The notes: generated from the sequence alone by a model not told the origin. A DNA stretch of 64,000 bases from Psilocybe cubensis (GCA_017499595.2 CM039006.1:2666001-2730000), one strand, 5' to 3'. Positions 20,281 to 49,664 are shown, counted from the first letter of the stretch. Translations and numbers: made by a program.

Positions 20281-23056
20281 TGTAAATGTCGGCCTGAAGG
20301 CGAAATGGATGGAGGAGTACAAACGAAGAAACGGTGAGAGCGGGAACCAAGCCGACGACGGTGATGATGACTGGACGATGGAAAAACCACGCCGTGCTGG
20401 GAAGGCAGAGCGTCACGTGACTTGTTGTTTCCCGGTTCCGCCTTTCGAACACGCCCGTCGACGACCGCACCTCCTAAACTACGCCTTCGGTCAAGAGACC
20501 TACTGTATAAATGGTCCTGGACAGAGGCCGGCTATATTCGGGGAAATATTTTAAAATTGTGAGATTTGTTAAAATTTTATCGAACCTCCTAATAACTGAT
20601 TTTGGAGCACCGTGACAGCACAGAAAATTTCAGAAACCGTTTTTGTAGTAACTCCCCTGTACTGCAAGTATTCTGGAGAGTACGTTTATGGAAACAGACG
20701 CCGCTCAAGTCTCTGAAACACTTCATGTCCATCTTATTGAAGGAGTCCGTCATCTGAATTATGTGTTCTGCTGCAAATCTAGACTTCAACCTCCTGACGG
20801 ATGATGCAACCGAACCAGAAATCTAAAATTACCCCGTGAGCGCTGCTCTTTCTTATGTATGGGCTACTTAGCTAGGAGGGATGCTAACGTTATTTTCTTT
20901 AAAAATACAGGGGCGGAACGTTTACCGGAAGAAAATGGCGGAAACTTGTCCAATAGCTTGTCGTAAAAGCAGTTCTCATGCCACCACAACCGCACGCAGA
21001 AGAAATAAAAACACAAGATTAATCGTGCAGTGAAATAACCACCTTAACTACTACTGGAGATAACGCAGACAAACGCACGCTAGAATGAACTACACCTCAC
21101 CGGAAATTTTGATTGTAAGTTTATATCCATGACTGATATTCATGGCCTTCGTATTTATTCTAAAAATTATCATTAGGTCGGTGGCGGACCTTCAGGTCTC
21201 ATACTTGCCCTTTCTTTGGCGCGTAACAATGTACCCGTGCGTCTCATCGAAAAATCCACAACTGAACGTGTTGGGCAGCGTGGGTCCGGAATATCAGTGC
21301 GTTCGATTTTGATTCCTTTCGAATCGTCTCTAATACTAAAGTTCGGTCAGCCTCGAACCTTTGAAGTCTTCGAGTCCCTTGGGGTAGTAGACGATGTCCT
21401 CAAGCAGGTTATCAAAGTGCCCAACTTCTGCGTTTTCAAGATGCCAGGAGGTACCGAAATAATCAATGACTTTAACATGGAAGAATATGTCGATCCGACA
21501 CCATCTATCCCATATGTAGGTGTTTTGAGCGCCATCTTGTTGTGATTTATCAACTGACATATATCGCATCCATAGCCTAATCTAATGCTCTTAGGCCAAG
21601 ATCTGCTTGACAAGATTCTGTGTGCCGAGTTGGCCAAACACCAATGCTGTCAAATTGATCTAGGTGCCGAGCTTCAGTCCTTGAAACAATGGGAAGATCG
21701 TGTGGAGGTCGTCATCATTAGACACGATCTATCACAAGACACCTTCGACTCGATTGATCCCGTTGTCGCACACTCGTCGCCAGAAGATCCTCCGGTAGCG
21801 CCGGTAGTCGAACACGCATCGTACAAATAGTGTTGCCGCCAGAGCGCAGTCACTCTGCAGTGACTGTGACTGCACTCTGTTTTTTCATTCTCCGACACAC
21901 TTCACAGCGCAACAAAGTCGCAGTGAAGTACTCTGCAAAGTGTGCCGTAAATTGCAGTTTCGGATAATCTAGACTAAATATGGAAGTATTACATGTATTT
22001 TTGTCGAATACATGAGAATGTTCGGGATACCTACTATATACGGAGGGTATTTATTGCACATGACCTTTATCTATCTAGATAAGATTGCAATAAAATATTC
22101 AACAGCGCACGTGGTCCAGCTCCTTTGATCTTGTCGTCGACACACATTTCTGCTTGGTTTTCGCTGGATTTGTTGCGAAAAGTCAAACAAATTGCTACAT
22201 TGAAGTGTATTGGACTATTAGTACACTGACTGAGTAAATACACATAGACAAAATGACTTCCAAAGCGCCAACCTTTCGTCGACCATTTTGTGAGGTCGAG
22301 ACAGTGAATGACGTCACAATCACTTCACAGCACTTCACAGGGACTGTGATCACTGTGAAGCGTGTCACAGTCGCCCAAAAATGGCTTCCATCAGGGAATC
22401 CGCGACAAGTGTCCGATGCAATCCATTAACAATGCAAGGGCTAAAATGCCCAAAATACGGAGAAAAATATGTCATACATTGGATCAGTAATGGACCGCAT
22501 TAGGTTCACTTAAAAAGCATGGATTATTCCACAAATATGTACGAGAACATCCATAATTTACAGATCATGGAGAGATATAAAATACAAAAACAAAATTTGT
22601 CTACCTCTCAATGTCTTCCAAAGTTGTACAAAATTTGTTAACAAATGGAATTCAGTGGATAACTGCCTGTTTTTAGTCCAAGAATGGTATACAATGGTTG
22701 GTGGATGCCGTGGTACCCTACATATTCCGTGCACAGGCGCTGGGAATCTGGAATCAGGCATTGCACAGCCATTTAGAAAACATGTTACATTGAAAGAAAG
22801 TATTACACAGCATGTAACGACAGGCATAGTCATGGATAATACGTAACGACAGTCGTAGTAAAGGAAATGTTATACTGAGCGAACATTAGTACAGAAGCTT
22901 TGAGAAGTGAGCAACGGGTGTAAAGAACTGGAAAAACAAATACAGTTTAACAATGAATAACAATACACATATCCGCGGGGATGACAGCCTGGTAAATAAG
23001 TCTAGAAACAGATAAAATGGCTGTTAGTAAAATATATTAGAAGGGATACAGCGAGA

Positions 23057-25498
23057 TCAAGCAGACCAGCCGCTGCCGCGATTATGATATGACTCGCTGA
23101 AAACCAGTGCACGAGATGGGGAGGACTGGGTACCACATGCAGATCGTGCTTTTTGGGTGGGCCTTCCACTGTTTTCCCACTCGTTGTCTGATACGGCAGG
23201 AGCCTGGGATCGCTTTCCGAGTACCTTGGCAGATGGGCGATATGTCAAATTTGGCAGTTTAGCCGCTGGTGGACTTGAGTATTCCGAATTGGCCTCGCGA
23301 AGGGTTTGAGAAGAGATGTGTGGTACATCCTTTTCAGGAGTGTACTGCTCGACATCCAACGTACCATCTGGACTGAGTGAGTGAGATCGATGGCGAGACA
23401 ATGATTGTTGACGTGCACGAGCTTCAAAACGAGGAGATGCATAACGAGGGTGGGGGGAGCTAGGCTGGTGATACATGGCAGTGCGAGGTTGATGAGAGGG
23501 AGGACTTCGACGAGAAGGGGACTGCCTACGAGACGGAGAGTGATGGTAAGATTGTGGTTGACCTTTTGACTCTGAGTAATGTTGAGATGAAGGTGTTCGT
23601 TGCTGCGGTCGAGATTGGTGGCGACGGGGAGACTGACCACGAGGAGTATCATGGAAATAATGGCGGGGAGACCGACCACGCAATGTAGCATCATGACGGC
23701 GGGGAGATTGAACATGTTGACGAGGTGAACTGTGGTGGCGGGATGGGGGTACAGGTTGAAGAGTGTGGTGGGACAATTGTGCAGGCACTGCAAGGTGCGG
23801 TACAACCTTCTTACTATCTTTTGAAGACGTACCAGCTTGTCCCAATCCTACAGATCTACCTCCCTTGCCTTGACCTGAACCTCCTGCTTCCTTGCCCCCC
23901 CCTTCTGTAGTAGATGCAGCTGCCTGAGCCTTGCGTGCTTTTCTGGCACGTCGTTGTTCCGCAATTGTATCATAGGTCGATGGGCCATCCAGATTGTCTT
24001 TAGTTTTCGCTGAGCGAGGGTCCTTGTTCAGGACCTTCCTGTAACGTGGTTCAAAGATCAACAATCTTGCGCAGCATGCGAAAAAGGACTTACGCATTCC
24101 ACCATTCTATAGTGTCCATTGACCATTCCGAGTCCCCGTCGTCCTTTTTATCTGGTTCAAACAGCGAGATGATGTATTTATAAAATTCATGACGATCAAA
24201 AACGTTGTCTTCAATACGCCAGTCTTCGATGCTTGAGATAGAGTAACGGATCTAGGCGGTGTAGATGAGCACAGTGTGAAAAATAAAGTTCAGACCCTTA
24301 CCAGCAGACAGGCATACGCAATTGAGGCTGGGGTGACTGTTTTCATGTGATGTATCTTGGCTTGGGAACTTCGTGTTTTGGTTTGGCCGGGCTTATCTTT
24401 AAGAGCCGACGAGGGCGAGGTAAAAATGTGCTTCCAAACCTGGTGGGAGCATTAGAAGCAATCATTTAATGTACTAAAACTTACCATGACTATGAGTCGT
24501 GTTCGAAACATCTCCGAGTCCCAATCCTCAGGATCAAATTTGTCTGATTCCCACAGAAAGGTGGGAAGGTCCTTTGCGAGAACATGGATTACATCTTTGT
24601 CAAGCTTGCACATAAATCTAAAAGTGAAGGGCCGTGCATATAGTTAGCATTACACCCTTACCAAGACATGGCCAACGTATTACTTACTCCGTAGGATTGT
24701 CATCAAAATCCTTGAGATACTTCATCGGGCACAAAAGACGAGCCAAAACCTTGTTCTTGAATCCACGCGATTCCGATTTGGTGGATGTTGCACTAATTTC
24801 GACCTTGTTGGCTGGCGAACACTCATTGATATACGTAATAATTGTGTTTTGAAGAGTTGAAATGTCCTCGGACCTGGCTGCCCCAGATGCAGCAATCATC
24901 TAGAATCCAACCATAGAACACTATAGTAAGACAGTTAAGATGAATGCAAATGAAAGGTACTTACTGCCTTGGCCAGATCGTCCTTTCGGTCAACATTCTT
25001 CGGGGATATAAAGTAGAATAGGTCTGATTCAAAACATTTGATACCAGCGATCATGTCAGCAAAAACAATGAGCTCATTTCTGTATTGATTTTCAAAGCTA
25101 CAAGGGTTATATGAGTAGATATATGCGCATATATTATCTGTTACAACTCACTTTTTTATATCGGTATCCCCAAATGAATCTATGTAGTATGAAATACCGC
25201 GGTCCAGAACCTCGTACCAGTTTTCGTAGAGATTTTTGCTCCGGGTATGCCAGCGAGCAAAAGACGTGTACGGTTTGAGAATTGCCCTAAAATTAAGTGA
25301 GCCTTGAGAATAAAGACAAAAGGAAGCGACATGCGCTGATTGCTTTGTTTTCCCTTGACTGTCAAGGGCTTTATTAAGGGCTTGAATGCGTTCCGGGTCT
25401 ATTTGGTGTTGATCCTTGCTCTCTTTGGGGTCGGATTCGCCATCATCGCTGTCGCTTGGGGCAGAAGGAGGAGCTTTGCGCAAAGAAGCAGGAGGCAT
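23057..25498 (-). CDS. Transposon accessory protein, DUF6698-like, with long disordered Ser/Arg/Pro/His-rich C-terminus (spliced)
   Basis: ATG 25498. Motifs RGFKNKVLARLLCP, PTFLW..FDPED, HIFTSPSSA, MKTVTPASIAYA, YSISSIEDW, FDRHEFY, IEWWN match my recollection of DUF6698. 3' end approximate. Confidence 0.7.
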
Positions 25499-27628
25499 GG
25501 TGGGAGGTTGAGTAAAAGAAGATGAGAAAGATGATGCGGGTTGAACACGGTGTTTAGCACACTCACGTGATTGCTGCCCTGGCTCCTTGCGCGACTGCTG
25601 CTTCCCTTTACCACTTGTCAACACAATCCATGCCCTTGCCAACCAGTCAATGAAATCCTTTTACTTCATTTTCCTAGGAGTTATCCTTATGGTGTTTTCA
25701 TGTAGTGGATGCACTGCTCCACCGTTCAAGAATTTGCAAGCCTTAACTGTTCATCGAAGGAATTGCAAAGGAGTGGCCAAAAACTCGCAACAAATTATAG
25801 AAAACTCGGCAAAAGCATTATCCCAAAGGAATAAGCGTCAACGCCTCTCTAATGCTTTAGAAAATGTTCCTGGACCTTCGGTATATTTTATTTGTGACCA
25901 TTTCTTTCCAAAATAAAACTTACACATTCTGTACAGCACGATTCAGAGCCTGAGGCTCCCATTAACATTGATATCACTGGAGAGCCAAATGTACATGATG
26001 CTCCGGACCATCCGGTTATTTCTGCACCAGCATTTGTTCTACCACCTACTCGGAGTGGCTGTGAACGGAAGTTCCCAAAGCAATATGCCGACATGCTACC
26101 GAACTCTTCTACATATTTACCACATCTCCCTCCGGCTCCACCACGGCTACCAAAGGAGCCCTCGAAACGAGCTGAAAAGCTTAGAGCAGCTTCTAGTACC
26201 CCTCCACCAGATCCTAAAGACATGTATCTGCGTAGCGAAATCAATGATTTTGGACTATATCGTGTTTATCCCTCGTTTCCCACCTGCGAAGTCAACGAAT
26301 CTGATGATCTTGACAACTTATGTGATGCACCAGGTCTGGCCACAGCAAGCGGCAAATCAAAAACACGATGGTGGAAGTCATTTGGCATCAATTCCGTGGA
26401 TACAACTTCTCAGAATGTTAGTCTTTTCACGCCATTTATGAACGCCACAATATTTCGTCTGGTCAACTGGTTTTATTCTGGGTCAAACCTCAAGTCGGCT
26501 GGTGAATTGGACCGTCTGGTTAAAGATGTACTCCTGGCCGATGACTTCGACAAAAACCACCTCAAAAACTTTAGTGCCAAACGAGAGTTTAGTCGCCTCG
26601 ATGAAACTGACGCTCAATTCCCTATTTCTTCGAGCAATACCTGGAAAACATCAACTGTCAAGCTCTCTTTACCTGCCGAAAATGTCCCACATTGTGCTGA
26701 ATCAGAGGCTCCTGTTCTGGAGGTTCCAAATGTACACCATCGAAGTCTTGTAGAGGTTATAAAGTCTGCCTTGGAAGACGAGTCGACAAACAATTTTCAT
26801 TATACTCCCTTTTGTCTTTTTTGGCAACCAACCAAGGAAAGCACTCCTGAACGAGTCGTTTCAGAGCTATACAACTCGGAGGCATTCTACGAAGAGCATG
26901 TGCGACTACAGCAGCAACCTCGAGAGCCTGGATGTACTCTAGAGGTTGCCATTGCCGGGCTGATGCTGTGGTCAGACTCGACACACCTTGCACAGTTTGG
27001 AAATGCCTCATTGTGGCCCATTTATCTCTTTTTTGGAAATCAATCGCAATATTTTCGTGCCAAACCCAAAAACTTTGCCGCCCATCATGTCGCCTACATT
27101 CCCTCGGTAAGTAATATATGAACTATGTCAAGATATATTGTTTATCGAGTGTTATAGCTCCCAAATTTCCTGCAGGATATTTATATGAAAGCTTTTAATG
27201 GTCTTGCAGCATCTGCAGCTACAATAACTCACCTCAAGCGTGAGCTCATTCAAGCAATTTGGCTTCTATTGCTCGATCCTGAGTTTATGCACGCGTATGA
27301 ACACGGAATTGTGATCAAATGTAGCGATGGTATAGTTCGGCGGATCTTTCCACGATTTTTTACCTACTCAGCTGACTATCCGGAGAAGTAAGTTCTTCTA
27401 TTCTTGTTAACGTGACAAGATTATTAATTATCTCCAAAAGAATACTTCTCGCGACTATCCGGTACCTTGCAAAATGCCCGTGTCCACGATGCTTGATCCC
27501 AATGTTCCGTATTGGGGATTTGGGAACAAAGGTTGACGACCAGCGACGCCAACACATACGAATTGACACACCATCGCGACAATACACAGTTGAGCAGAGT
27601 CGTAAACACATCTATGAACAAGGGAAGG

Positions 27629-28078
27629 TGTCAGGGTTTCTCCAGTTTTCCCTCTTTATCTTCACAGATTTATCTTATCCTTTCATTATCTTATCAATTA
27701 TCTGATTAGATAGTTTATTTCTTTCATCACAGCCTTCTTGCTCTGCTTCTTTCTAGTAAATTCTATATGATTCTTAGTCTTACTCATCCTTTTTCTATAT
27801 GATGTCACTTTTATTCTTTAACCTTCCTTTATGATATAATGTAGGGAATATTCTAGAATAGCTGTAGAGTATAAATACTGGACTTGTAGGTAGCTGTAGC
27901 TTCAGCTTCAATCTCTTAGGATATCCACTATCATTGGTGTGATCTCTTAGAATCATTGAGTCTCTCTCACTCTCTTATTCTCTCTCTGCTCTCTTACTCT
28001 CCCTCTGCTCTCTTTCTCTCTCTCTTGCTTGATCTTTGTTGGTGGCCTTGTCACACTGATTATAGTGTTGCCCTGACA
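27629..28078 (+). repeat. 5' LTR (450 bp)
   Basis: TGTCAGGG...CCCTGACA termini, TATAAATA at 27870; no difference from 33560-34009 found by eye. Confidence 0.97.
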
Positions 28079-28080
28079 GA

Positions 28081-28091
28081 AGATTGAAGCT
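28081..28091 (+). promoter_or_regulatory. Putative self-priming primer-binding site
   Basis: AGATTGAAGCT is the exact reverse complement of LTR 27904-27914 (AGCTTCAATCT). No tRNA-type TGG PBS is present. Confidence 0.75.
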
Positions 28092-28583
28092 CTCTCAAGA
28101 CAACTCCACCATCTCTCTTTCAACACCACACTCTTCACCTCTTCAACCTCTTCAACATCATCACCTCAACCTTCTTCCTCCACTTCCAACCCACCAACCT
28201 CTTCATCAACCTCTTCACCAATCTTCTTACCAACCTCTACATCTCCTCCAATCTTCAACATCCTCCTCAAGACCTTTCCTCAAGACCTTTCCTCAAGACC
28301 TTTGGCTCATCATCTTTCCTACTCTCTGTTGTGTGCTGTGTGTGAACTTAGTAGATAGGGATACCAACTGTTGGGGCAGACACAGTCCTACTAGTGTTCT
28401 GTTTTTGGTGGTCTAGGAAATATCCAGTAACCCTGTGATCCTAGGTTTAGAGCCCTGAGTGGTGTGACAACTGGGTATCCAGTAGATAGATATTTTTTTT
28501 AGAATACTTAGTATAGTTTCAAGGGCACTTTTAGTAGATAGCTTCTCCCACACACACATCAGAGAGCCTACCTACCCCTACCC

Positions 28584-29681
28584 ATGGACATGGACCCCTC
28601 CCAATTGCCTCCCACCACTCCTTCTGTGGAAGAGCTCATGCATCAGGTCCAGCTCCTTACCCAAGAGTTGAATTTTCTTAGACAGCAGCAGCAGTCATCA
28701 TCCACTCCACCACACCCTCAGCAACCAGTCAGTCAGTCACCATCACCACCACCTGCTGCTCTAGATATTCACTCTTTCCCTACCCCTCATGTTGCCCCTT
28801 CCTGTTCACACTCTGTCATTAAAGTCTCACCTCCAGATCCATTTGATGGTTCTATGGAGAAGGCAGAAAACTTCCTCAGTCAGCTCAAATTATATTTCTA
28901 TGGGAAAGGGATTACAGATGACTTTCAGAAAGTTATTTGTGCTCTATCTCATATGAAAGGAGGTACTGCTGGGAAGTGGGCATATGAGAAGACTAAAGTA
29001 ATAGACAATGCTCAGTCCCAAGAAGGTCTTTGGGCTGACTTTGTTTATGAATTTAGGGAAGTGTTTGCAGATCCAGACCCCTCCAACACAGCTAAGCATA
29101 AAATGCACATGCTCAAGCAAGGCAGGCAGACTGCTGATGAGTATGTTGCTAGCTTCAGGGCTCTGATCTCAGATACTGGGTATAATGATGCTGCTTTGGT
29201 AGACCAATTCAAGGCTGGGCTTAATGAAAATCTCAGGAATGCAGTCTACTATGTTCCTGACATGCCCAAAACCTTGGATGGATGGATTAAATGGAGTACT
29301 AGGCTAGATAGGCAGTGGAGACAGAGTGAGGCCTTTACCAAGTCTCTTTCCTCCTCCTCTTCTTCTCCCTTCCTTAAAGCCCCAACTCCCAAGGCTGTTC
29401 CTAAGCCTACTCCAAATCCTCCAGTCTTTTCCAACAGCAGCTCAAGGACCTTTGGTGCTCAGGCAAAGCAACCAGATGTAGTTCCCATGGAGGTTGACTC
29501 TGGATGGAAGTCAGTTAGGCCAATTGTTTGCTTCAAGTGCAGAAAGCCTGGTCATAAGGCTGTAAACTGCAGGTCATCAGTTAACATCAATGCTATGACC
29601 CATGAAGAACTGGCTGACTACTTTGGGAAATTAATCTTGGAAGGAAAGGAGCAGAAAGATGAGGAAAAGAAAAATTTTTAG
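28584..29681 (+). CDS. gag: Retrotransposon Gag
   Basis: 365 aa; PDPFDG, LKQGRQTADEYVASF, VPMEVD and zinc knuckle CFKCRKPGHKAVNC. Confidence 0.95.
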   Translation: MDMDPSQLPPTTPSVEELMHQVQLLTQELNFLRQQQQSSSTPPHPQQPVSQSPSPPPAALDIHSFPTPHVAPSCSHSVIKVSPPDPFDGSMEKAENFLSQLKLYFYGKGITDDFQKVICALSHMKGGTAGKWAYEKTKVIDNAQSQEGLWADFVYEFREVFADPDPSNTAKHKMHMLKQGRQTADEYVASFRALISDTGYNDAALVDQFKAGLNENLRNAVYYVPDMPKTLDGWIKWSTRLDRQWRQSEAFTKSLSSSSSSPFLKAPTPKAVPKPTPNPPVFSNSSSRTFGAQAKQPDVVPMEVDSGWKSVRPIVCFKCRKPGHKAVNCRSSVNINAMTHEELADYFGKLILEGKEQKDEEKKNF

Positions 29682-32600
29682 AAGCACCATTGGTGAAAGA
29701 CATGTCCCAATGGAATAGATTTAATGTACTAGAAAATGAAATTGACAGATTTGATCCTCAGTCTTCAGATTCTGGTGCAGAAATCATGTCTACTTCTTCC
29801 TCTCTTTCTACCTTCCCTGAAAAGATCTACATCCTCAACCATAATCCTAAAACCTCTACCCATTTGTCTGTCATCTTAAAGACAATGGACACAGAGAAAA
29901 GGTTATCTGTTGATGCTTTGCTTGATTCTGGAGCTACTGGCCTCTTTCTGCATTCTGGTTTTGTGAAGTATCATAATCTCAACACAAGGAAACTTCCTAG
30001 AGCCATTCCAGTCTATAATGTTGATGGTACTCTCAACAAGAGTGGCTCTATCCATGAGGAAGTAGACTTAATTATGGTACACAAGAACCATACAGAAAGG
30101 GCCACCTTTGCTGTTTGTGACTTGGGAGACAAATCTGCTATCATTGGACATACTTGGCTTTGGCACCATAATCCAGATGTTGATTGGAAGACAGGGGATG
30201 TTCAGTTTATTAGATGTCCCTCTGACTGCCAAATGGAAGCCAAAAGAGCCAGAAGAAAGAGGCAGAGAATAGCTGCAGTCAAAAGGAGGAAACTCCCTCA
30301 ATTTGATGAAGAAGGAGATGATTCTATTGAAGATTCTTCTGATTCTGAGATTGAGCCTGAGGACAGAATTTTTATCTCATATCTTCATCCTCAGAAGCAG
30401 TCTATTAATGCTACTTCTACTATGTCTCAAAGATTAGCAGAAGAGTCTCATCAGCAAGCTGATTCCCCTAAGAAAACCTTTGAAGAAACTGTTCCTAAGC
30501 ACTATCATCAATTTAAAGGTGTTTTTTCAAAGGAATCTTTTGATAGGCTACCAGATAGAAAGCCTTGGGATCATGCTATTGAGCTGAAACCTGGTTCTGA
30601 ACCTTACAGATCCAAGATTTATCCTCTTTCTCCTAATGAACAAAAGGAACTTGATGCCTTTTTAGAGGAAAATCTGAAATCTGGCAGGATTAGACCCTCC
30701 AAGTCACCTATGGCCTCCCCTGTATTCTTTGTCAAGAAGAAGGATGGATCTCTTAGGCTTGTCCAGGACTATAGGAAACTAAATGAAATGACCATCAAGA
30801 ACTCCTACCCCCTTCCATTGATTTCTGACATTATCACCAAACTCAGCAAAGCCAAATACTTCACCAAACTTGATGTTAGGTGGGGATTTAACAATGTCAG
30901 AATCAAAAAGGGAGATGAATGGAAAGCAGCCTTTAGAACCAATAGAGGGCTGTTTGAACCATTGGTCATGTTCTTTGGTTTAACCAATAGTCCTGCTACC
31001 TTCCAAACTATGATGAATGATATCTTTATTGAGCTCATTGATGGAAATGTTGTCATTGTCTACATGGATGACATTTTAATTTTCACTGAGACTCTTGATC
31101 ATCATAGAGAGGTAGTCAAGCAAGTTCTGCAAATCCTAGAACAGAACAAACTCTACCTTAAAGCAGAGAAATGTGAATTTGAAAAGGAAAAGATTGAATA
31201 TCTTGGACTAATCATTTCACAAGGCAGGATTGAGATGGATCCTGTCAAGGTAGAGGGAGTTTCTAAATGGCCTGAACCTGAAAATGTCAAGGATGTCCAA
31301 TCATTCTTGGGATTTGTTAATTTTTATAGAAGGTTCATAGAGGATTTTGCAGACATTGCTAAGCCCCTTCATGAATTGACAAAGAAAGGAACAGTCTGGA
31401 GATGGAGTCTTAGACAGCAGGAAGCCTTTGACCAGTTAAAGAAGAAAGTCACTTCTTCACCTGTCTTGATTTTCCCTGATGATAACAAGCCATATAAAGT
31501 TGAAGCAGACAGTTCAGATTATGCTACTGGGGCTGTTTTATCTCAGGAAGGATCAGATGGGAAATGGCATCCTGTAGCCTTTATGTCTAAGAGTCTATCT
31601 GAAGTAGAAAGGAATTATGAGATCCATGACAAAGAGATGCTGGCTATTATCAGAGCACTAGATGAATGGAGACATTATCTTGAAGGAACCCAACATTCCT
31701 TTGAGATTTGGACAGACCACAAAAACTTAGAGTACTTTATGGTTGCCCAAAAGCTCAGCAGAAGGCAAGCCAGATGGTCACTCTTCCTGTCCAGATTTGA
31801 TTTTACTCTTCATCATAGGCCTGGTAAAAGATCTCTTAAGCCAGATGCTTTGTCTAGGAGACCAGATCATAAAAAGGGAGAGAATGATAACCAAAATGTA
31901 GTTCTCCTCAAACCTTCCTACTTTAAAATCCAGGCTCTCAAGCAGGGTCATGCTACCATTACTGGTGCAGAAAATGATCTTCTTAAGAAGATTAGAGAAG
32001 CTAAGGAGATGGATGAAAAGGTGGTCAAGGCAGTTCAGGAGCTCAAGAAATCTTCTACCAAGAAGATTGAAGGACAGGAATGGTCAGAAGAACAAGGCCT
32101 TATTCTCTACAGGGGGAAGGTGTATGTTCCCAAGGACAAAGATCTTAGAAGAAAGATTGTGGAACTGCACCATGATGCCTTCATTGCTGGACATCCAGGG
32201 AAATGGAAGACAATTGAGCTAGTCTCTAGGAATTATTGGTGGCCAGGAATGTCACATTTTATTGCAGCCTATACCAGAGGTTGTGATAGATGCAACAGAA
32301 CCAAAACCTTTCCAGCCAAACCTCTTGGTCTTTTAATTCCTACTGAGATTCCCTCTGATGTCTGGCAATGCATTTCTGTGGACTTTATTATGGGGTTACC
32401 AGAATGTCAAGGGTATAATGCCATTATGGTGGTTGTGGATAGACTTAGTAAAATGATCCACATTATCCCTACTACAGATGAAGTCACTTCTGAAGGGACA
32501 GCCAGACTATACAGAGATTATGTCTGGAAACACCATGGCTTACCCATTAAAATTCTGTGTGATAGAGGTCCACAGTTTGTCTCAAGGTTTATGAAAGAAC

Positions 32601-33559
32601 TCAACTCAATACTTGGTATCCAGACAGCCTCATCTACAGCCTACCATCCCCAAACTGATGGTCAGACTGAAAGGGTTAACCAAGAAATTGAGCAGTATCT
32701 TAGACTCTTCATAAATCATAGACAAGATGATTGGGTTGAATGGTTAGCTCTGGCTGAATTCTCTTATAACAACAGAGTTCAGGCTTCAACTAGGCAGACA
32801 CCATTCATGCTCAATAATGGCAGACATCCCAGAATGGGCACTGAACCCCTTAGAGATAGTAAAATGGACACTGTGGATACCTTTGTGAAAAATATGGAAG
32901 AAGCCAGAAAAGAAGCAGAGTCTGCACTTAGAAAAGCTGCTGATGATATGGCTAAATTCTATAATAGACACAGAGGTACTCCAACTCAGTACAAAGTTGG
33001 GGATTTGGTATGGTTGGATGGCAAGGACCTCAAAACTGATAGGCCCTCCAAGAAATTGGATGATAAAAGATATGGGCCTTACAAAATTACCAAAGTTATT
33101 AGCCCTAATGCCTATGAGCTTAAGCTGCCATCCACCATGAAAATCCATCCAGTGTTCAATGTGGTTAAACTTCTACCTTATCACCCAGATATTGTAGGAA
33201 GAAAGCCACCTTCTAGACCACCTCCAGTCATTCAAGGAGAAAATCCTGAGTGGGAAGTTGAATTTATCAAGGACAGCAGACTTTTTAGAAACAAACTTCA
33301 ATATTTGGTCAAGTGGAAAAACTATCCTAATGAAGAATGCACTTGGGAGCCTGCAGAGCATTTGAAAAATGCTTCTAAGGCTATCAAGGACTTCCATGCC
33401 AAACACCCTTCAGCACCTAGAAGGATTTCTGCTGTGACCTTTGATAGACTTTCTTTCACTCCTATTATTAACTTTACTGAACCTCCTCCCCTTCTTAAAC
33501 CCTCTAAACTAACCCATCCATGTGCACATTGTGGAAAATGTGCCTTAGAGAGGGGGTGA
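29672..33559 (+). CDS. pol: Retrotransposon Pol (protease, RT, RNase H, integrase, chromodomain), in the -1 frame relative to gag
   Basis: LLDSGAT, YPLP, YMDDIL, DSSDYATGAVL, H-H-C-C zinc finger, DDE core (SVDF, DRGPQF, GQTERVNQ), GPY motif, chromodomain (WEVEFI...YLVKWKNYPNEECTWEP). No internal stop over 1289 aa. Confidence 0.96.
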   Translation, partial: KFLEAPLVKDMSQWNRFNVLENEIDRFDPQSSDSGAEIMSTSSSLSTFPEKIYILNHNPKTSTHLSVILKTMDTEKRLSVDALLDSGATGLFLHSGFVKYHNLNTRKLPRAIPVYNVDGTLNKSGSIHEEVDLIMVHKNHTERATFAVCDLGDKSAIIGHTWLWHHNPDVDWKTGDVQFIRCPSDCQMEAKRARRKRQRIAAVKRRKLPQFDEEGDDSIEDSSDSEIEPEDRIFISYLHPQKQSINATSTMSQRLAEESHQQADSPKKTFEETVPKHYHQFKGVFSKESFDRLPDRKPWDHAIELKPGSEPYRSKIYPLSPNEQKELDAFLEENLKSGRIRPSKSPMASPVFFVKKKDGSLRLVQDYRKLNEMTIKNSYPLPLISDIITKLSKAKYFTKLDVRWGFNNVRIKKGDEWKAAFRTNRGLFEPLVMFFGLTNSPATFQTMMNDIFIELIDGNVVIVYMDDILIFTETLDHHREVVKQVLQILEQNKLYLKAEKCEFEKEKIEYLGLIISQGRIEMDPVKVEGVSKWPEPENVKDVQSFLGFVNFYRRFIEDFADIAKPLHELTKKGTVWRWSLRQQEAFDQLKKKVTSSPVLIFPDDNKPYKVEADSSDYATGAVLSQEGSDGKWHPVAFMSKSLSEVERNYEIHDKEMLAIIRALDEWRHYLEGTQHSFEIWTDHKNLEYFMVAQKLSRRQARWSLFLSRFDFTLHHRPGKRSLKPDALSRRPDHKKGENDNQNVVLLKPSYFKIQALKQGHATITGAENDLLKKIREAKEMDEKVVKAVQELKKSSTKKIEGQEWSEEQGLILYRGKVYVPKDKDLRRKIVELHHDAFIAGHPGKWKTIELVSRNYWWPGMSHFIAAYTRGCDRCNRTKTFPAKPLGLLIPTEIPSDVWQCISVDFIMGLPECQGYNAIMVVVDRLSKMIHIIPTTDEVTSEGTARLYRDYVWKHHGLPIKILCDRGPQFVSRFMKELNSILGIQTASSTAYHPQTDGQTERVNQEIEQYLRLFINHRQDDWVEWLALAEFSYNNRVQASTRQTPFMLNNGRHPRMGTEPLRDSKMDTVDTFVKNMEEARKEAESALRKAADDMAKFYNRHRGTPTQYKVGDLVWLDGKDLKTDRPSKKLDDKRYGPYKITKVISPNAYELKLPSTMKIHPVFNVVKLLPYHPDIVGRKPPSRPPPVIQGENPEWEVEFIKDSRLFRNKLQYLVKWKNYPNEECTWEPAEHLKNASKAIKDFHAKHPSAPRRISAVTFDRLSFTPIINFTEPPPLLKPSKLTHPCAHCGKCALERG

Positions 33560-34009
33560 TGTCAGGGTTTCTCCAGTTTTCCCTCTTTATCTTCACAGAT
33601 TTATCTTATCCTTTCATTATCTTATCAATTATCTGATTAGATAGTTTATTTCTTTCATCACAGCCTTCTTGCTCTGCTTCTTTCTAGTAAATTCTATATG
33701 ATTCTTAGTCTTACTCATCCTTTTTCTATATGATGTCACTTTTATTCTTTAACCTTCCTTTATGATATAATGTAGGGAATATTCTAGAATAGCTGTAGAG
33801 TATAAATACTGGACTTGTAGGTAGCTGTAGCTTCAGCTTCAATCTCTTAGGATATCCACTATCATTGGTGTGATCTCTTAGAATCATTGAGTCTCTCTCA
33901 CTCTCTTATTCTCTCTCTGCTCTCTTACTCTCCCTCTGCTCTCTTTCTCTCTCTCTTGCTTGATCTTTGTTGGTGGCCTTGTCACACTGATTATAGTGTT
34001 GCCCTGACA
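33560..34009 (+). repeat. 3' LTR (450 bp)
   Basis: Direct repeat of 27629-28078, followed by TSD GAAGG. Confidence 0.97.
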
Positions 34010-37000
34010 GAAGGGGGTCAAGAGTACCGCAGTAGAAAACCTTTTACAAGGAAATTCCACTACACCAACCCGTGTATGTATTTATTTACCGCCTTATCTA
34101 CAGTGTACAGCCGCTAACAGAACACTTTTAGAATGCATTTTCAACCCGATTGTTTCAATTCGGCTTCAATTACTTCTCGATGTTTGTGCCAGATTTACTA
34201 CATGAATTTGAGCTCGGTGTGTGGAAGGCCGTGTTCTCACATTTAATGCGCATCCTACATGCATATGCCGAGAACAGCATTCAAAAACTCAACGAAAGGT
34301 CTGTTCTATCTGGATAGACTATTAATTCAGTCTAACTAATACAATAACAATCTAGATATCGCCAGGTAGAAACATTCGGGCAAGACACAATCCGAATGTT
34401 TTCAACCAATGCTTCAGCCATGAAGAAACTCGCAGCGCGAGACTTTGAAGACCTGCTACAGGTTTGTTTTGATCTCATTTATTTGGTGTTATGCTCAATT
34501 TGGCATGCTTTGAAGTGCTCAATGCCAGTTTTTGAGGGCTTACTGCCTCGAAAACACGATGAATTTATACAGAATATGCTGTTTACGCTATGTACATGGC
34601 ACGCTTACGCAAAGCTGCGTCTTCAGACGACTTCGACGCTCAATGGGCTCAAATCCACTACAAAAACCCTTGGCAAACTCCTTCGGGGGTTCGCTAAAGA
34701 CATATGTCCACATTATGATACAGTTGAACTTCCCCAAGAAGAAGCCGCACGAGTACGCCGTCGAGCAAATGCTGTCAAGAAAGGCAAGATTCTACCAAAT
34801 TCTCGGCGTAAGACTCGTAACTCTGGGCCCATTGATGAGGATGATTCCACTACCCAGTCAAAGCGCCGAAAAGTCTTTAATTTATTAACATACAAACTCC
34901 ATGCTCTTGGAGACTATGTTGCCTCGATCTGGAGGTATGGACCAACAAGTGGCTACTCGACACAGATTGTAAGTCTTGTTTATTATGATTATTTTGTGAT
35001 TACTGATTCGTTTTTTATGGATCAAACCAATTATAGGGAGAGCTTGAACACCGAAGAGTCAAGCGCTTCTATGCCAAAACAAACAAAGGACGCACCTTTG
35101 AACGGCAAATTACAAGACATCAATGTCGAGAACGCCTTCTTCGTACAATTTCTGAACGTGAAAAAAGATCCAAAAAGACCTCAACGGATATATTACAACA
35201 GGCGCCTTCAAACTACTCTACATCAAATGTTTCCAATGCTCCACACGTTCCATTCATTGAATCAGATGCACTTCCACCTACTCTACCTCAGCTGCACCAT
35301 CATATTAGTGCCGACAAGCGCCTCAAAGATAATGTCCACCGCTGGCTTTACACAAATGAGGGTGATCCTGCTCTCAAGGTAAATTGTGTTGCTTGCCACC
35401 TCCTTTCTTGCCCTCTACAATTATTTAATCTTACGTTTAGAACTTTATACGCGACCTCAAGAATCACCTTTTATCTCGCCTTCTAGGGCATACCGCCGAC
35501 AGTGACGATTATCTGTATTACTCTGATGAAGACCGCTACAATGTGCAAATTGTCAACAACCTCATGTTCCGACACAAGCTGCTCAGAATCAATTACACCA
35601 CGTACGATGTGAGGCGCCAACAAGACACAATCAATGCTCGAACTCACGCCGATATTATGACACTATCGGGGAACACGGCTGACAATGCTCATCCATATGC
35701 CTATGGTCGAGTATTAGGTATTTTTCACGTTGATGTTCAGCATCGTGGACCTCTTTCAACATCAAACCAAACTCATCGGATGAACTTTCTTTGGGTAAGA
35801 TGGTTTGAACTTGATCCAAACTACGTTGGAGGCTGGAAGACTAAGCGACTTCATCGGGTTCGCTTTATCAATTCCTCTTCATCTCTAGCCTTTGGGTTTC
35901 TAGATCCTGCAGATGTCATACGTGCATCTCATCTGATACCAGCTTTTGCACACGGGCCTACTGAGGAATATCTAGGTCCATCTATTGCCCGGCCTGTTCT
36001 CAAAAACCGAGTCAATCTGCTGAATCAAGATTGGCGATTCATGTATATTAATATGTAAGTCGTTCTCCAAGCTACTACTAATCGTAGTGTCTTATTGACT
36101 CCGGTGTAACGGGCAGGTTTGTTGACCGCGATATGTTTGTGAGATACCTTGGTGGCGGAGTCGGTCACTATACAACAAATGAATACACCATAAACCTCCG
36201 GCCTGACGATCACGATGTTCGGAATGTGTTTGTGGTACCTCACCATGGTGTAGACGATACAGGAGTTCATCTAGAAGACGAGGATGAAAGCATGGACTGG
36301 CTGGATGAAGAAGATACACACCTCCTGAGCAATGATGCCGATGAGCGCCATTTCTCCGAGGCTGACCCCGATGATTTCAACTCTGAAGATGATGACTGGG
36401 GTTATAAATCCCCTACCCACTCGTGCGACGGCTCAGACGATGAGACAGATCATTTGGATGATAGTGAAAGTGATCATGGGGAGGATCTTGGTGGGTCTGC
36501 GGGCACTATGGACGATGATGGTGTTGGTGGTGGTATGATTTATGAGCCCAACATTGGTGCGGAGGATGGCGAAGAGCCGTGGGAGATGGGTGATGAAGAG
36601 GCGGAAGGCTACGGTATTCTATAAGGCGGTTGTAACTGTATATCTACTAGATGCTAAATTGAATTTGTATTCCTCCCACTTCTTGAGTTGGATAGTGTTT
36701 GACCCCGTACAAATGGGTACAGGCCAGTGACAAGCCAGGTCATCTTGGACTTAAAGGCATTGAAGACAAAAATTGATCAACCTTGCATTTGAATGCATTG
36801 AAGTCAGAATTTTTGGGGCTGTTTTACATACAAACCACAAACTTTGCTGTGTGCTTCCAATGCATACCCAGAATTTTTCTATCTTAGATGAGACTCACCA
36901 TTATCATATTGCCAATAAATTCACAAATATAAATTGACGACAGAATGCAATGTCAGGCAGAAAATTATACTTACATTGGTTACTCTCTACCAAAATCTTA

Positions 37001-37977
37001 CCTCTCTTTTAAGGTCTTCCAAATATTTCTCGGGTATACGTTGTTCACCAAAAATTGTGGTTACTTTGGAAGGAAATGCAAAGTTATGTCAAAAATTGTA
37101 GTCACTTTGGACGTACATTGCATTGCCTTATTAATATCGTGAGACCTTGGATGGCGTACCCTGCAACCCATTCTTTTTGCCGATTTGCTGATGTCACTGT
37201 CACTGCACTGCACTCTGGCGGCAACACTACGTACAAATTCGTAGTAGGCGCCGATGGCGCTAAGAGCGTCGTGAGAAAGCAGCTTGGCTTGGCGTTTATC
37301 GGTGAGACGATGGAGCAGAGGATGATCGTGGGTGATTTCATAGGGGACGCCCCGTTCTTTATCAATGTGAGCACTTTGTCTGTGTTGTAGATTAATATGG
37401 CTGATTGAGCTTATCCAATTTTTTGGAGCAGAAATGGGGTTGGTGGAGAGACAATGAAGACAATGTGTAAGTTGCTGATTTAAACCATATTTGCGTAGTC
37501 TTTGCTGTTGAAAATCTGACTTTGTTACCATTATAGAACCGCTATACGACCCACTAATACACCAGGGAAATTCACATTTTTCACGGGTGGATATAAGAAC
37601 GTCAAATACGCCGAAATCTGCTCGAGTGATGACGCGGTTAAAGAATCTATTCTCAAGGGGACTGGAGGAAGGACCGATATAAAGATTGAGGAGTTTGTAT
37701 GGAGATCCCCTTACAGGTAAAGTCTTTTTAAAGCTTCAATGTGATGTATTAAACACCGATTTTGAAATAGGGTGAACGTACGTATGACCGAGACTTTCAG
37801 AAAGGGAAGGGTGTTCATTGTAGGAGGTATGAATTTGTATCCATTCTTGGGTGTTTTATCAACTGATGAGCAACACGCACAGATGCCGGACATGTTCACA
37901 GCCCAGCGGGAGCTCAGGTACTAAGCGATTCTGACTTGCAAACTATTCATCTAATTAACGCGATTGCAATTCTGTAG

Positions 37978-38772
<795 letters not shown>

Positions 38773-44104: not shown

Positions 44105-45104
44105 TGTGATAGTTGGAAAAGGGAGATAAATGAGATGGCGGTGGGGAGAGAAGAGGTGTTGTGACTGTGACCTCTTCCCGGTCAATGTGATTACCGGTGT
44201 GACGTGTGTGATAACGGGAATCAATTGCCGAGCCCGAACCAATACGGCAACATACGGCCACAAAAATATGGAGGGGCAATTATGTTTCCTATGTTCTTGA
44301 CGTATTTTCTGGAATATATGCAGCTTTATTCCCCAATTTTGCAACCTTACAGCCCATTTATATAATGAAAGGAACATTTGATGCTGCTCAAAGTTATCAT
44401 ATAACCATTGTTTACAGACTCTCAAGAGTTTCTCGAATCCCAGAACTTCCGAAAATGTCAAAGTTAGTTGCGGTATGCCCAGGATCTAGCTGCAGTACTA
44501 TACCTTTTATGATATCCGACTCCACCATAGAAGACAGCAAATACTTCTAGCGCCACGTCATTCTCCGATTCGACCTCGACAATTAATTTTGACGCAGTGG
44601 ACAACAACAGTATCCTTAGGATATCTGAATAGTGAGGTATAACTGCGACACTTTTTCTGTTATGGATCAAGGCAGTGAGTTAAGCAGGTAATGCTAGAAC
44701 ACATAATTCTGAACTGTAAACTAGTAAATAGCCATCGACTTCAAAATATAAATGGACAAAATCATCCACAAACACGATCATCATTCGCAAAGTAAAATTA
44801 TAGATGAAAAATAAAAAGCAAAAAACACTATTTGAGTGTCTTGTTTTTTCTAACCATGGTTATATAGATTTTTATGGCAGTTAACTGATGCAAAGAACAT
44901 GCCAGTGGAGTCGGTGTGACCTCTTGATGAACCGGCGATCAATCGGCACATTTGGAGCGGAGATTGAATGAGCCATTGCCGTCTCTTTGTACAAGAAGCA
45001 TTGTCAAAGAAAGGTTTATGGGTATTTTCATACCGATAGACCTATTCCCTAAATCAAACATTAAAAATTGACGATGATACCCCGCATAGAAAATAACGAT
45101 GGTA

Positions 45105-45341
45105 GGCGAAGTGTAAGAGTGGCGTTTGCGCCTGGGTCGCATCGCTAAAAGTTGACAGAGCGTTCCTTCGTTTATAAACCGCCGTCCATAAGAAGAATAC
45201 CCGAAATGAATGTTTTAGCGATGCGACCCAGGCGCAAACGCCTCTCTTACACTTCGCCGACGAGCCATTGGGGTAGGTTACTGGCGTTTGCGCCTGGGTC
45301 GCATCGCTAAAACATTCATTTCGGGTATTCTTCTTATGGAC
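45105..45341. repeat. Overlapping inverted repeats (three copies of GGCGTTTGCGCCTGGGTCGCATCGCTAAAA)
   Basis: 45184-45242 is the perfect reverse complement of 45283-45341 (59 bp). 45105-45150 pairs nearly perfectly with 45213-45258. Confidence 0.9.
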
Positions 45342-49312: not shown

Positions 49313-49664
49313 AGTCCTTCTCAATTCTAAAAGTTAGAAAAAAAGTTAGAAATTTATGCATGGCAACAGTGTAGCAACGATCATACTGGGCGTCGAGGAC
49401 ATGCGGTATGACGCCGCCAAGTTGATCCTGTTCCTGTCTGAGTTAGAATGAGTCTGAAAGTCGGCAGGCTTTGCCGCCGTGTTTCGGTCGCCATTGACGC
49501 GTCCAGACACGCGAATGAGTTGTGCCGTTCGGCATTGGCACACAACATTTTAAACACCGCTTTGTCTTGTCCATCTAGGCATCACATAGCCAAGACGCCC
49601 AGCGTGATTGTTGCCATGCATAAATTTCTAACTTTTTTTCTAACTTTTAGAATTGAGAAGGACT
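49313..49664. mobile_element. 352-bp MITE with 56-bp perfect TIRs and 3-bp TSD
   Basis: AGTCCTTCTCAATTCTAAAAGTTAGAAAAAAAGTTAGAAATTTATGCATGGCAACA at 49313-49368 and its exact reverse complement at 49609-49664; TGT on both flanks. Confidence 0.88.

Follow-up and report, generated by a model that had tools for sequence, protein, structure and literature searches.

Nested retrotransposons in the intergenic regions of maize are the classic example of insertions within insertions. The DNA transposons of the PlavakaB group possess the termini 5'-CATCA..TGATG-3' and are flanked by target site duplications (TSDs) of 2 or 3 bp, as laid out in section 3.2.2 of the published survey (Kojima, 2025; PMC12730594). 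An 8-bp TSD combined with the terminal motif YARNG is described as typical of hAT elements (PMC3014272), and in Marasmius oreades, a member of the Agaricales, the families MarorhAT-4, -11 and -12 are reported to be non-autonomous, 597-631 bp long and mobile in trans (PMC9674265). For retrotransposons with chromodomains, these domains have been taken as a sign that insertion favors particular chromatin (PMC2832683). Here we analyze a 64,000-nucleotide stretch of the genome of Psilocybe cubensis (GCA_017499595.2 CM039006.1:2666001-2730000; hereafter the window, with positions counted from its first letter), in which an exon of a gene for a flavin adenine dinucleotide (FAD)-dependent monooxygenase holds a small DNA transposon, which holds a Plavaka transposon, which in turn holds a Gypsy retrotransposon. 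This three-level nest brings together three transposon classes in a single insert of about 15.4 kb, and removal of each layer restores the sequence of the layer beneath, that is, the host gene, the outer element and the Plavaka transposase gene, respectively. In all probability, the locus is a null allele of an Agaricales monooxygenase that resulted from three successive insertions, the second and the third each into the element that had arrived before.

The boundaries of the elements and their TSDs were read directly from the window sequence and subsequently checked with a script. The original prediction of a three-level nest holds at every coordinate, with TSDs of 8 bp, 2 bp and 5 bp for the outer, middle and inner element, and both predicted sizes were reproduced, with 595 bp when the outer element is emptied and 8,419 bp when the Gypsy is taken out of the Plavaka. 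The two reading frames that had been proposed to be restored, HASYK/FVVGADG in the host gene and YEQGK/GVKSTAV in the transposase gene, are legible in the sequence and are backed by alignment to relatives. What is observed directly comprises the element boundaries and their TSDs, the restored sequences, the identity of the two long terminal repeats (LTRs) of the Gypsy and the intact coding capacity.

The host gene is split into a 5' part (21085..21827, plus strand), which starts with exon 1 at 21085-21114, contains the GxGxxG motif from position 21177 and ends with ...HASYK, and a 3' part (37238..38772, plus strand), which runs from FVVGADG... to the stop codon; both parts were delineated using Pfam and tblastn, with a gene model as an additional source for the 3' part. 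The Pfam family FAD_binding_3 (PF01494) yields four exon-level matches that together span profile positions 7-346 of 349, namely 7-50, 95-144 (ending at 21827), 150-189 (starting at 37232) and 303-346; given that positions 95-144 are followed by positions 150-189 on the other side of the insert, the profile runs on across it. The same continuity is apparent in tblastn alignments to the window of six relatives chosen from the 120 listed. All six proteins, which come from Agaricales, show adjoining residue numbers to the left and to the right of the insert: 168 and 171 in P0002, 150 and 154 in P0004, 200 and 196 in P0009, 160 and 171 in P0010, 148 and 154 in P0011, and 172 and 170 in P0007. For example, P0009 is aligned up to ...EHASYK at 21827 (residue 200) and is picked up again at 37223 (residue 196) with YKFVVGADG. 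The sequences VGGGPSGL, VVGADGAKS and DAGHVHSPAGAQ are visible in these alignments, so that the GxGxxG, GADG and DAGH..GQG segments are all present, and the predicted function of the gene product is that of a FAD-dependent aromatic-ring monooxygenase. When the 265-aa C-terminal exon was used as the query, Agaricales FAD monooxygenases of approximately 550-590 aa were retrieved, with no more than 46% identity among the matches listed; the best named relatives, at up to 46% identity, come from Agrocybe, Psilocybe and Galerina.

Apart from the insert, the gene appears undamaged, as had been proposed. The start is intact, with an ATG at 21085, a first exon of 10 codons, a GTAAGT donor and an acceptor ahead of VGGGPSGL at 21177, and a model with GT-AG introns maintains an open frame from this ATG to the stop codon at 38770-38772. 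This model is greedy and rough, with some introns misplaced and at least one in-frame intron missed near 21290-21345, and accordingly it was used only for the conclusion that no frameshift or premature stop needs to be assumed, and not for exon coordinates. The outer element opens with TAG (21828-21830), an in-frame stop codon directly after ...HASYK; therefore, judging from the sequence, this allele of the monooxygenase should be null.

The outer element is framed by the 8-bp TSD CGTACAAA, the left copy of which occupies 21820..21827 and the right copy 37230..37237. Its left 561 bp (21828..22388) and its right 34 bp (37196..37229) carry perfect 17-nt terminal inverted repeats (TIRs) with the sequence TAGTGTTGCCGCCAGAG, located at 21828-21844 on the plus strand and, as the reverse complement, at 37213-37229 on the minus strand; counted at 96% identity, each arm is 23 nt long. 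At up to 3 mismatches, TAGTGTTGCCGCCAGAG has just two matches in the window, against an expectation of 0.11. The TSD sequence occurs three times in the window, against 1.57 expected, and the chance that two copies directly abut both TIRs is about 4^-8. Once emptied, the outer element is 595 bp long and has no coding capacity. When the 140 nt at its left end are aligned to the reverse complement of the 140 nt at its right end, the inverted repeat is approximately 115 nt long after removal of the Plavaka, whereas in the window as it stands the repeat ends after 43 nt. Beyond the first 34 nt, the restored alignment has a score of 40, which was not reached in any of 1,000 shuffles (mean 13.8, maximum 31), compared to a score of 15 when the same alignment is made against the end of the Plavaka instead. 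The motif CTTCACAG is present in four copies, including those in the left subterminal region, and each lies within approximately 100 nt of one of the two ends of the element, as expected for subterminal binding sites.

The terminus of the outer element, TAGTG, fits YARNG and is found together with an 8-bp TSD and short TIRs, all of which are features expected of hAT elements, and on the strength of these features a hAT-like element, as suggested in the original prediction, appears to be the better guess and a probable one. An alternative assignment, to another superfamily that produces 8-bp TSDs such as Zisupton or Dileera of the KDZ group, would leave the nest itself unaffected. TSDs of this length are attributed to Zisupton and to one Dileera family in fungi (PMC12730594), KDZ elements are described as plentiful in Agaricomycetes (PMC12730594; PMC8290104), and a Pfam search found no hAT transposase domain anywhere in the window. 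Nevertheless, we regard this alternative as rather unlikely, because TAGTG agrees with the motif given as typical of hAT alongside 8-bp TSDs (PMC3014272), and the size and architecture agree with the 597-631-bp non-autonomous hAT families that are active in M. oreades (PMC9674265). Given that the fungal Zisupton and Dileera elements also yield 8-bp TSDs and that the outer element encodes no transposase, hAT-like is a fitting label for this element and not a demonstrated membership.

The middle element is a PlavakaB-type transposon of the CMCT clade that occupies 22389-37193 on the plus strand and comprises 8,419 bp without the Gypsy; 34 nt separate it from the right end of the outer element. 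Its left part (22389..27628) opens with the 5' terminus CATCAG, preceded by TC at 22387-22388, and its right part (34010..37193) closes with the 3' terminus CTGATG, followed by TC at 37194-37195. The TC dinucleotide on either side represents a 2-bp TSD, and a 3-bp reading fails (TTC versus TCA). Past the first 6 nt, the terminal inverted repeat of the Plavaka is imperfect. The ends have two independent lines of support: they match the published termini of PlavakaB, and removal of the sequence between them restores the subterminal inverted repeat of the outer element.

The transposase gene of the Plavaka consists of a 5' part (25689..27628, plus strand), which corresponds to aa 1-595 of the protein P0271, includes short introns and was identified with the Pfam family PF18759 and tblastn, and a 3' part (34010..36624, plus strand), which corresponds to aa 595-1349 and ends with the stop codon at 36622-36624. 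PF18759 is matched at positions 19-163 (E = 2.9e-14) and 172-229 (E = 1.6e-06), both above the curated cut-off. In an exhaustive search with the 407-aa exon as the query, we identified 2,446 relatives at E <= 0.001, among which the closest named protein is JR316_0001494 of P. cubensis (P0271; 1,349 aa), with 77% identity over this exon. In tblastn, P0271 is aligned over its entire length (residue 1 at 25689, residue 1349 at 36621), with 77-82% identity to the 5' part of the gene; the alignment breaks off at 27627 and restarts at 34011, on residue 595 in both cases. All 10 long transposase relatives that were aligned to the window match both sides of the Gypsy. The piece ahead of the Gypsy ends at 27549-27657 in seven of these relatives and earlier, at 27313-27388, in the remaining three; the short 21-aa exon piece at 34011-34073 is picked up by one (P0224), in which residue 282 closes one piece and opens the next. 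P0273 likewise breaks off and restarts across the Gypsy on the same residue (503), and a third relative, P0272, lacks the short piece. All stops within the transposase alignments sit in intron-like gaps, and no lesion of the gene other than the Gypsy is seen in the alignments of the relatives. The alignment at 27436-27627 shows a CPCPRC stretch, which includes C-x2-C; neither the H(3-4)H motif nor the DDE residues were located.

In addition to the transposase gene, the Plavaka carries a DUF6698 gene on the opposite strand (24093..24899, minus strand; four exons that cover Pfam positions 3-202 of 206), which is arranged head to head with the transposase gene (ATG at 25689) and might extend over 23060-25660. 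Downstream of the DUF6698 domain, the minus strand contains a GC-rich, repeat-containing frame of 349 aa (23060-24106), for which neither a Pfam family at E <= 1 nor a usable match in the ESM Atlas was found; it may be a C-terminal extension of the DUF6698 gene. The term DUF6698 is absent from the searchable literature. Elsewhere in the window, a non-coding element of 1,330 bp (14620-15949) is bounded by inverted repeats of 34 nt (91%), terminates in CATCG..CGATG and lies between two copies of GA; by its sequence, it looks like a non-autonomous Plavaka-type element. A foldback-like cluster of long inverted repeats (15948-16701) starts exactly at the end of that element, and another such cluster is found at 45102-45341; the arms in these clusters are 48-93 nt long with 79-100% identity.

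The inner element is a Gypsy of 6,381 bp (27629-34009) that sits in an exon of the Plavaka transposase gene between two copies of the 5-bp TSD GAAGG (27624..27628 and 34010..34014). The 5' LTR (27629..28078, plus strand) is 450 bp long, has TG..CA ends and contains TATAAATA near 27866; the 3' LTR (33560..34009, plus strand) is preceded by a purine tract at 33547-33556, just upstream. Between the LTRs, a gag frame (28542..29681, plus strand) with the Ty3 capsid, Retrotrans_gag and zinc knuckle overlaps by 16 nt, in a different frame, with an uninterrupted pol frame of 1,298 aa (29663..33559, plus strand), in which the domains follow the order protease (residues 82-166), reverse transcriptase (357-518), RNase H (581-712) and integrase (825-996). 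At its C-terminus, pol contains SH3_Tf2-1 and a chromodomain (PF00385; E = 2.5e-15; residues 1197-1246), and therefore this Gypsy is a chromovirus. No damage is apparent in the LTRs, the TATA box, the purine tract, gag or pol, and the nearest proteins are at most 89% identical. No primer site of the tRNA type (TGG) is present; the 11 nt just after the 5' LTR (28081-28091) are exactly complementary to positions 27904-27914 of the LTR itself, about 40 nt downstream of the TATAAATA box. Elements of the Tf1 type employ a self-priming mechanism, of which this complementarity is reminiscent, although for the present element such priming is only suggested by the sequence.

The two LTRs, which run TGTCAG...CTGACA, are identical at 450 of 450 positions, and the Gypsy is very young. 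Under an assumed rate of 1e-9 to 1e-8 substitutions per site per year (our own assumption), less than one difference between the LTRs is expected within roughly 0.1-1 million years. Thus, the Gypsy insertion is very recent. For the two outer layers, the perfect TSDs, the intact ends and the otherwise complete transposase gene point to a young age as well. Accordingly, of the three recent sequential insertions that were originally proposed, the sequence of events is the best-supported reading, and their recency is confirmed for the Gypsy by the identical LTRs, whereas for the outer two elements it is a likely extrapolation from the state of their sequences.

The most economical history, and the best supported, is one of three insertions in place, the order and in situ location of which we infer from the nesting. 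In the first step, the 595-bp non-autonomous cut-and-paste element, most probably derived from a hAT element and mobilized in trans, would have entered the coding exon with an 8-bp duplication, and its TAG would have halted the monooxygenase frame right after ...HASYK. Subsequently, the 8.4-kb autonomous PlavakaB would have inserted into this element, 34 nt from the right end, with duplication of TC. Finally, the 6.4-kb Ty3/Gypsy chromovirus would have inserted into the transposase exon, duplicating GAAGG and inactivating the Plavaka copy. Silenced chromatin is regarded as the preferred target of chromodomain integrases, for which direct demonstrations are reported. This preference is a possible reason why the Gypsy landed inside a transposon within a gene-rich stretch, and the chromodomain of its integrase may have steered it into a transposon that had been silenced already.

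Several points weigh against this reading of the locus. The nest is known here from the assembled sequence alone, and nesting topology by itself is no proof that all three events happened at this site. A match of 2 bp such as TC is weak when taken on its own, given that it is expected in 1 of 16 cases. Searches of the emptied outer element, both parts of the Plavaka and the Gypsy against the whole window with blastn returned self-matches only, and the window contains no empty or intermediate copies that would provide independent proof of the ends or of the order of events. With respect to the first step, the superfamily of the outer element was assigned solely from the features of its ends, and of the hAT target consensus nTnnnnAn, CGTACAAA agrees with position 7 and not with position 2.

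An alternative history that has to be considered is that the nest, or just the two inner layers of it, arose at another site and was then moved into the exon as a unit via the outer TIRs, with transposase supplied in trans. Both outer TIRs and the 8-bp TSD are perfect, the identical LTRs of the Gypsy imply that all the events could be very recent, and the place of each event is not fixed by the topology alone, all of which is compatible with movement as a unit. Transposition of hAT elements is favored by subterminal binding sites and by short length. Movement of the unit is disfavored because, on the right side, no more than 34 nt of subterminal sequence adjoin the TIR, the remainder of the subterminal inverted repeat of approximately 115 nt and its CTTCACAG motifs having been pushed 14.8 kb away; in addition, blastn detected no second composite copy in the window, and we therefore deem this history improbable. 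Stronger doubt still attaches to the idea, already raised in the original prediction, of a functional 15.4-kb composite, in which the outer TIRs and a transposase acting in trans would move the Plavaka together with a competent Gypsy. A milder version holds that the outer element, once in the exon, may have served as a landing pad of silenced chromatin and drawn the next two insertions into a gene-rich region.

An assembly artefact, in which repeats were wrongly joined and the nest is absent from the genome, is very hard to credit, because three independent TSD pairs (8, 2 and 5 bp) and three precise restorations are not the product of mis-joins. Finally, the reading of the outer TIRs as the Plavaka's own ends, which would turn the insert into a single 15.4-kb element with an 8-bp TSD and render the 22389/37193 boundaries spurious, is rejected with near certainty, even though a duplication as short as TC may be fortuitous (1 in 16), given that CATCAG..CTGATG with a 2-bp TSD is the exact signature published for PlavakaB (PMC12730594), that the outer inverted repeat is split by the Plavaka and becomes whole again when the latter is removed, and that the second, non-autonomous element in the window, with its CATCG..CGATG ends and 2-bp GA TSD, displays the same type of ends in this genome.

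The rest of the window is gene-rich and includes genes for phosphoglucose isomerase, peroxin-13, a mannosyltransferase, a short-chain dehydrogenase, a DUF2264 protein and a P450. A Pfam search of frames of at least 90 aa revealed no transposon protein domains outside the nest. The gene upstream of the monooxygenase gene (19624-20412, minus strand) encodes a DUF7137 domain (E = 4.4e-50) and is unrelated to the nest. At 49313-49664, there is a 352-bp element that resembles a miniature inverted-repeat transposable element; its 56-nt TIRs are perfect, and the TGT at either end is apparently a 3-bp TSD.

Nested insertions in which each element has its own TSD have long been known, each of the three elements is of a described kind, and no new mechanism is involved. 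The locus presents a textbook case of a gene knock-out through nested insertions and offers a clearly delimited, nearly intact PlavakaB with both ends, the TSD, the full structure of the transposase gene and the DUF6698 companion, in a group, Plavaka, the ends of which were only recently defined. Judging from the identical LTRs and the intact ends, several transposon classes appear to have been active recently in this fungus. Possible uses of the locus include that of a strain or haplotype marker and that of an entry point to the autonomous partner of the 595-bp element. If the composite does move, a non-autonomous element of about 600 bp would act as a vehicle for two unrelated transposon classes.

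Compared to the known systems, the middle element resembles the PlavakaB elements described for Agaricomycotina in the PF18759 domain, the CATCA..TGATG termini and the 2-bp TSD (PMC12730594), and its transposase can be aligned over the whole length of the Plavaka protein JR316_0001494; the copy analyzed here differs in being inactivated by the Gypsy in the transposase exon. Some PlavakaB families carry a TET/JBP dioxygenase gene, according to the same survey (PMC12730594), whereas the Plavaka in this locus carries the DUF6698 gene, and no TET/JBP domain was matched in it in the Pfam search. The outer element can be likened to MarorhAT-4, -11 and -12 in its size of about 600 bp (595 bp here), lack of coding capacity, short TIRs and occurrence in Agaricales; the MarorhAT families are reported to move in trans (PMC9674265), whereas the outer element is without a known autonomous partner. 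The inner element shares with the Tf1/sushi-type Ty3/Gypsy chromoviruses of fungi the order of protease, reverse transcriptase, RNase H and integrase, the C-terminal chromodomain, SH3_Tf2-1, the TG..CA LTRs and the 5-bp TSD. As in the nests of maize, older elements enclose younger ones, and every layer has retained a TSD of its own; in contrast to those nests, the one described here starts in a coding exon, within a gene-rich stretch, and combines three different transposon classes.

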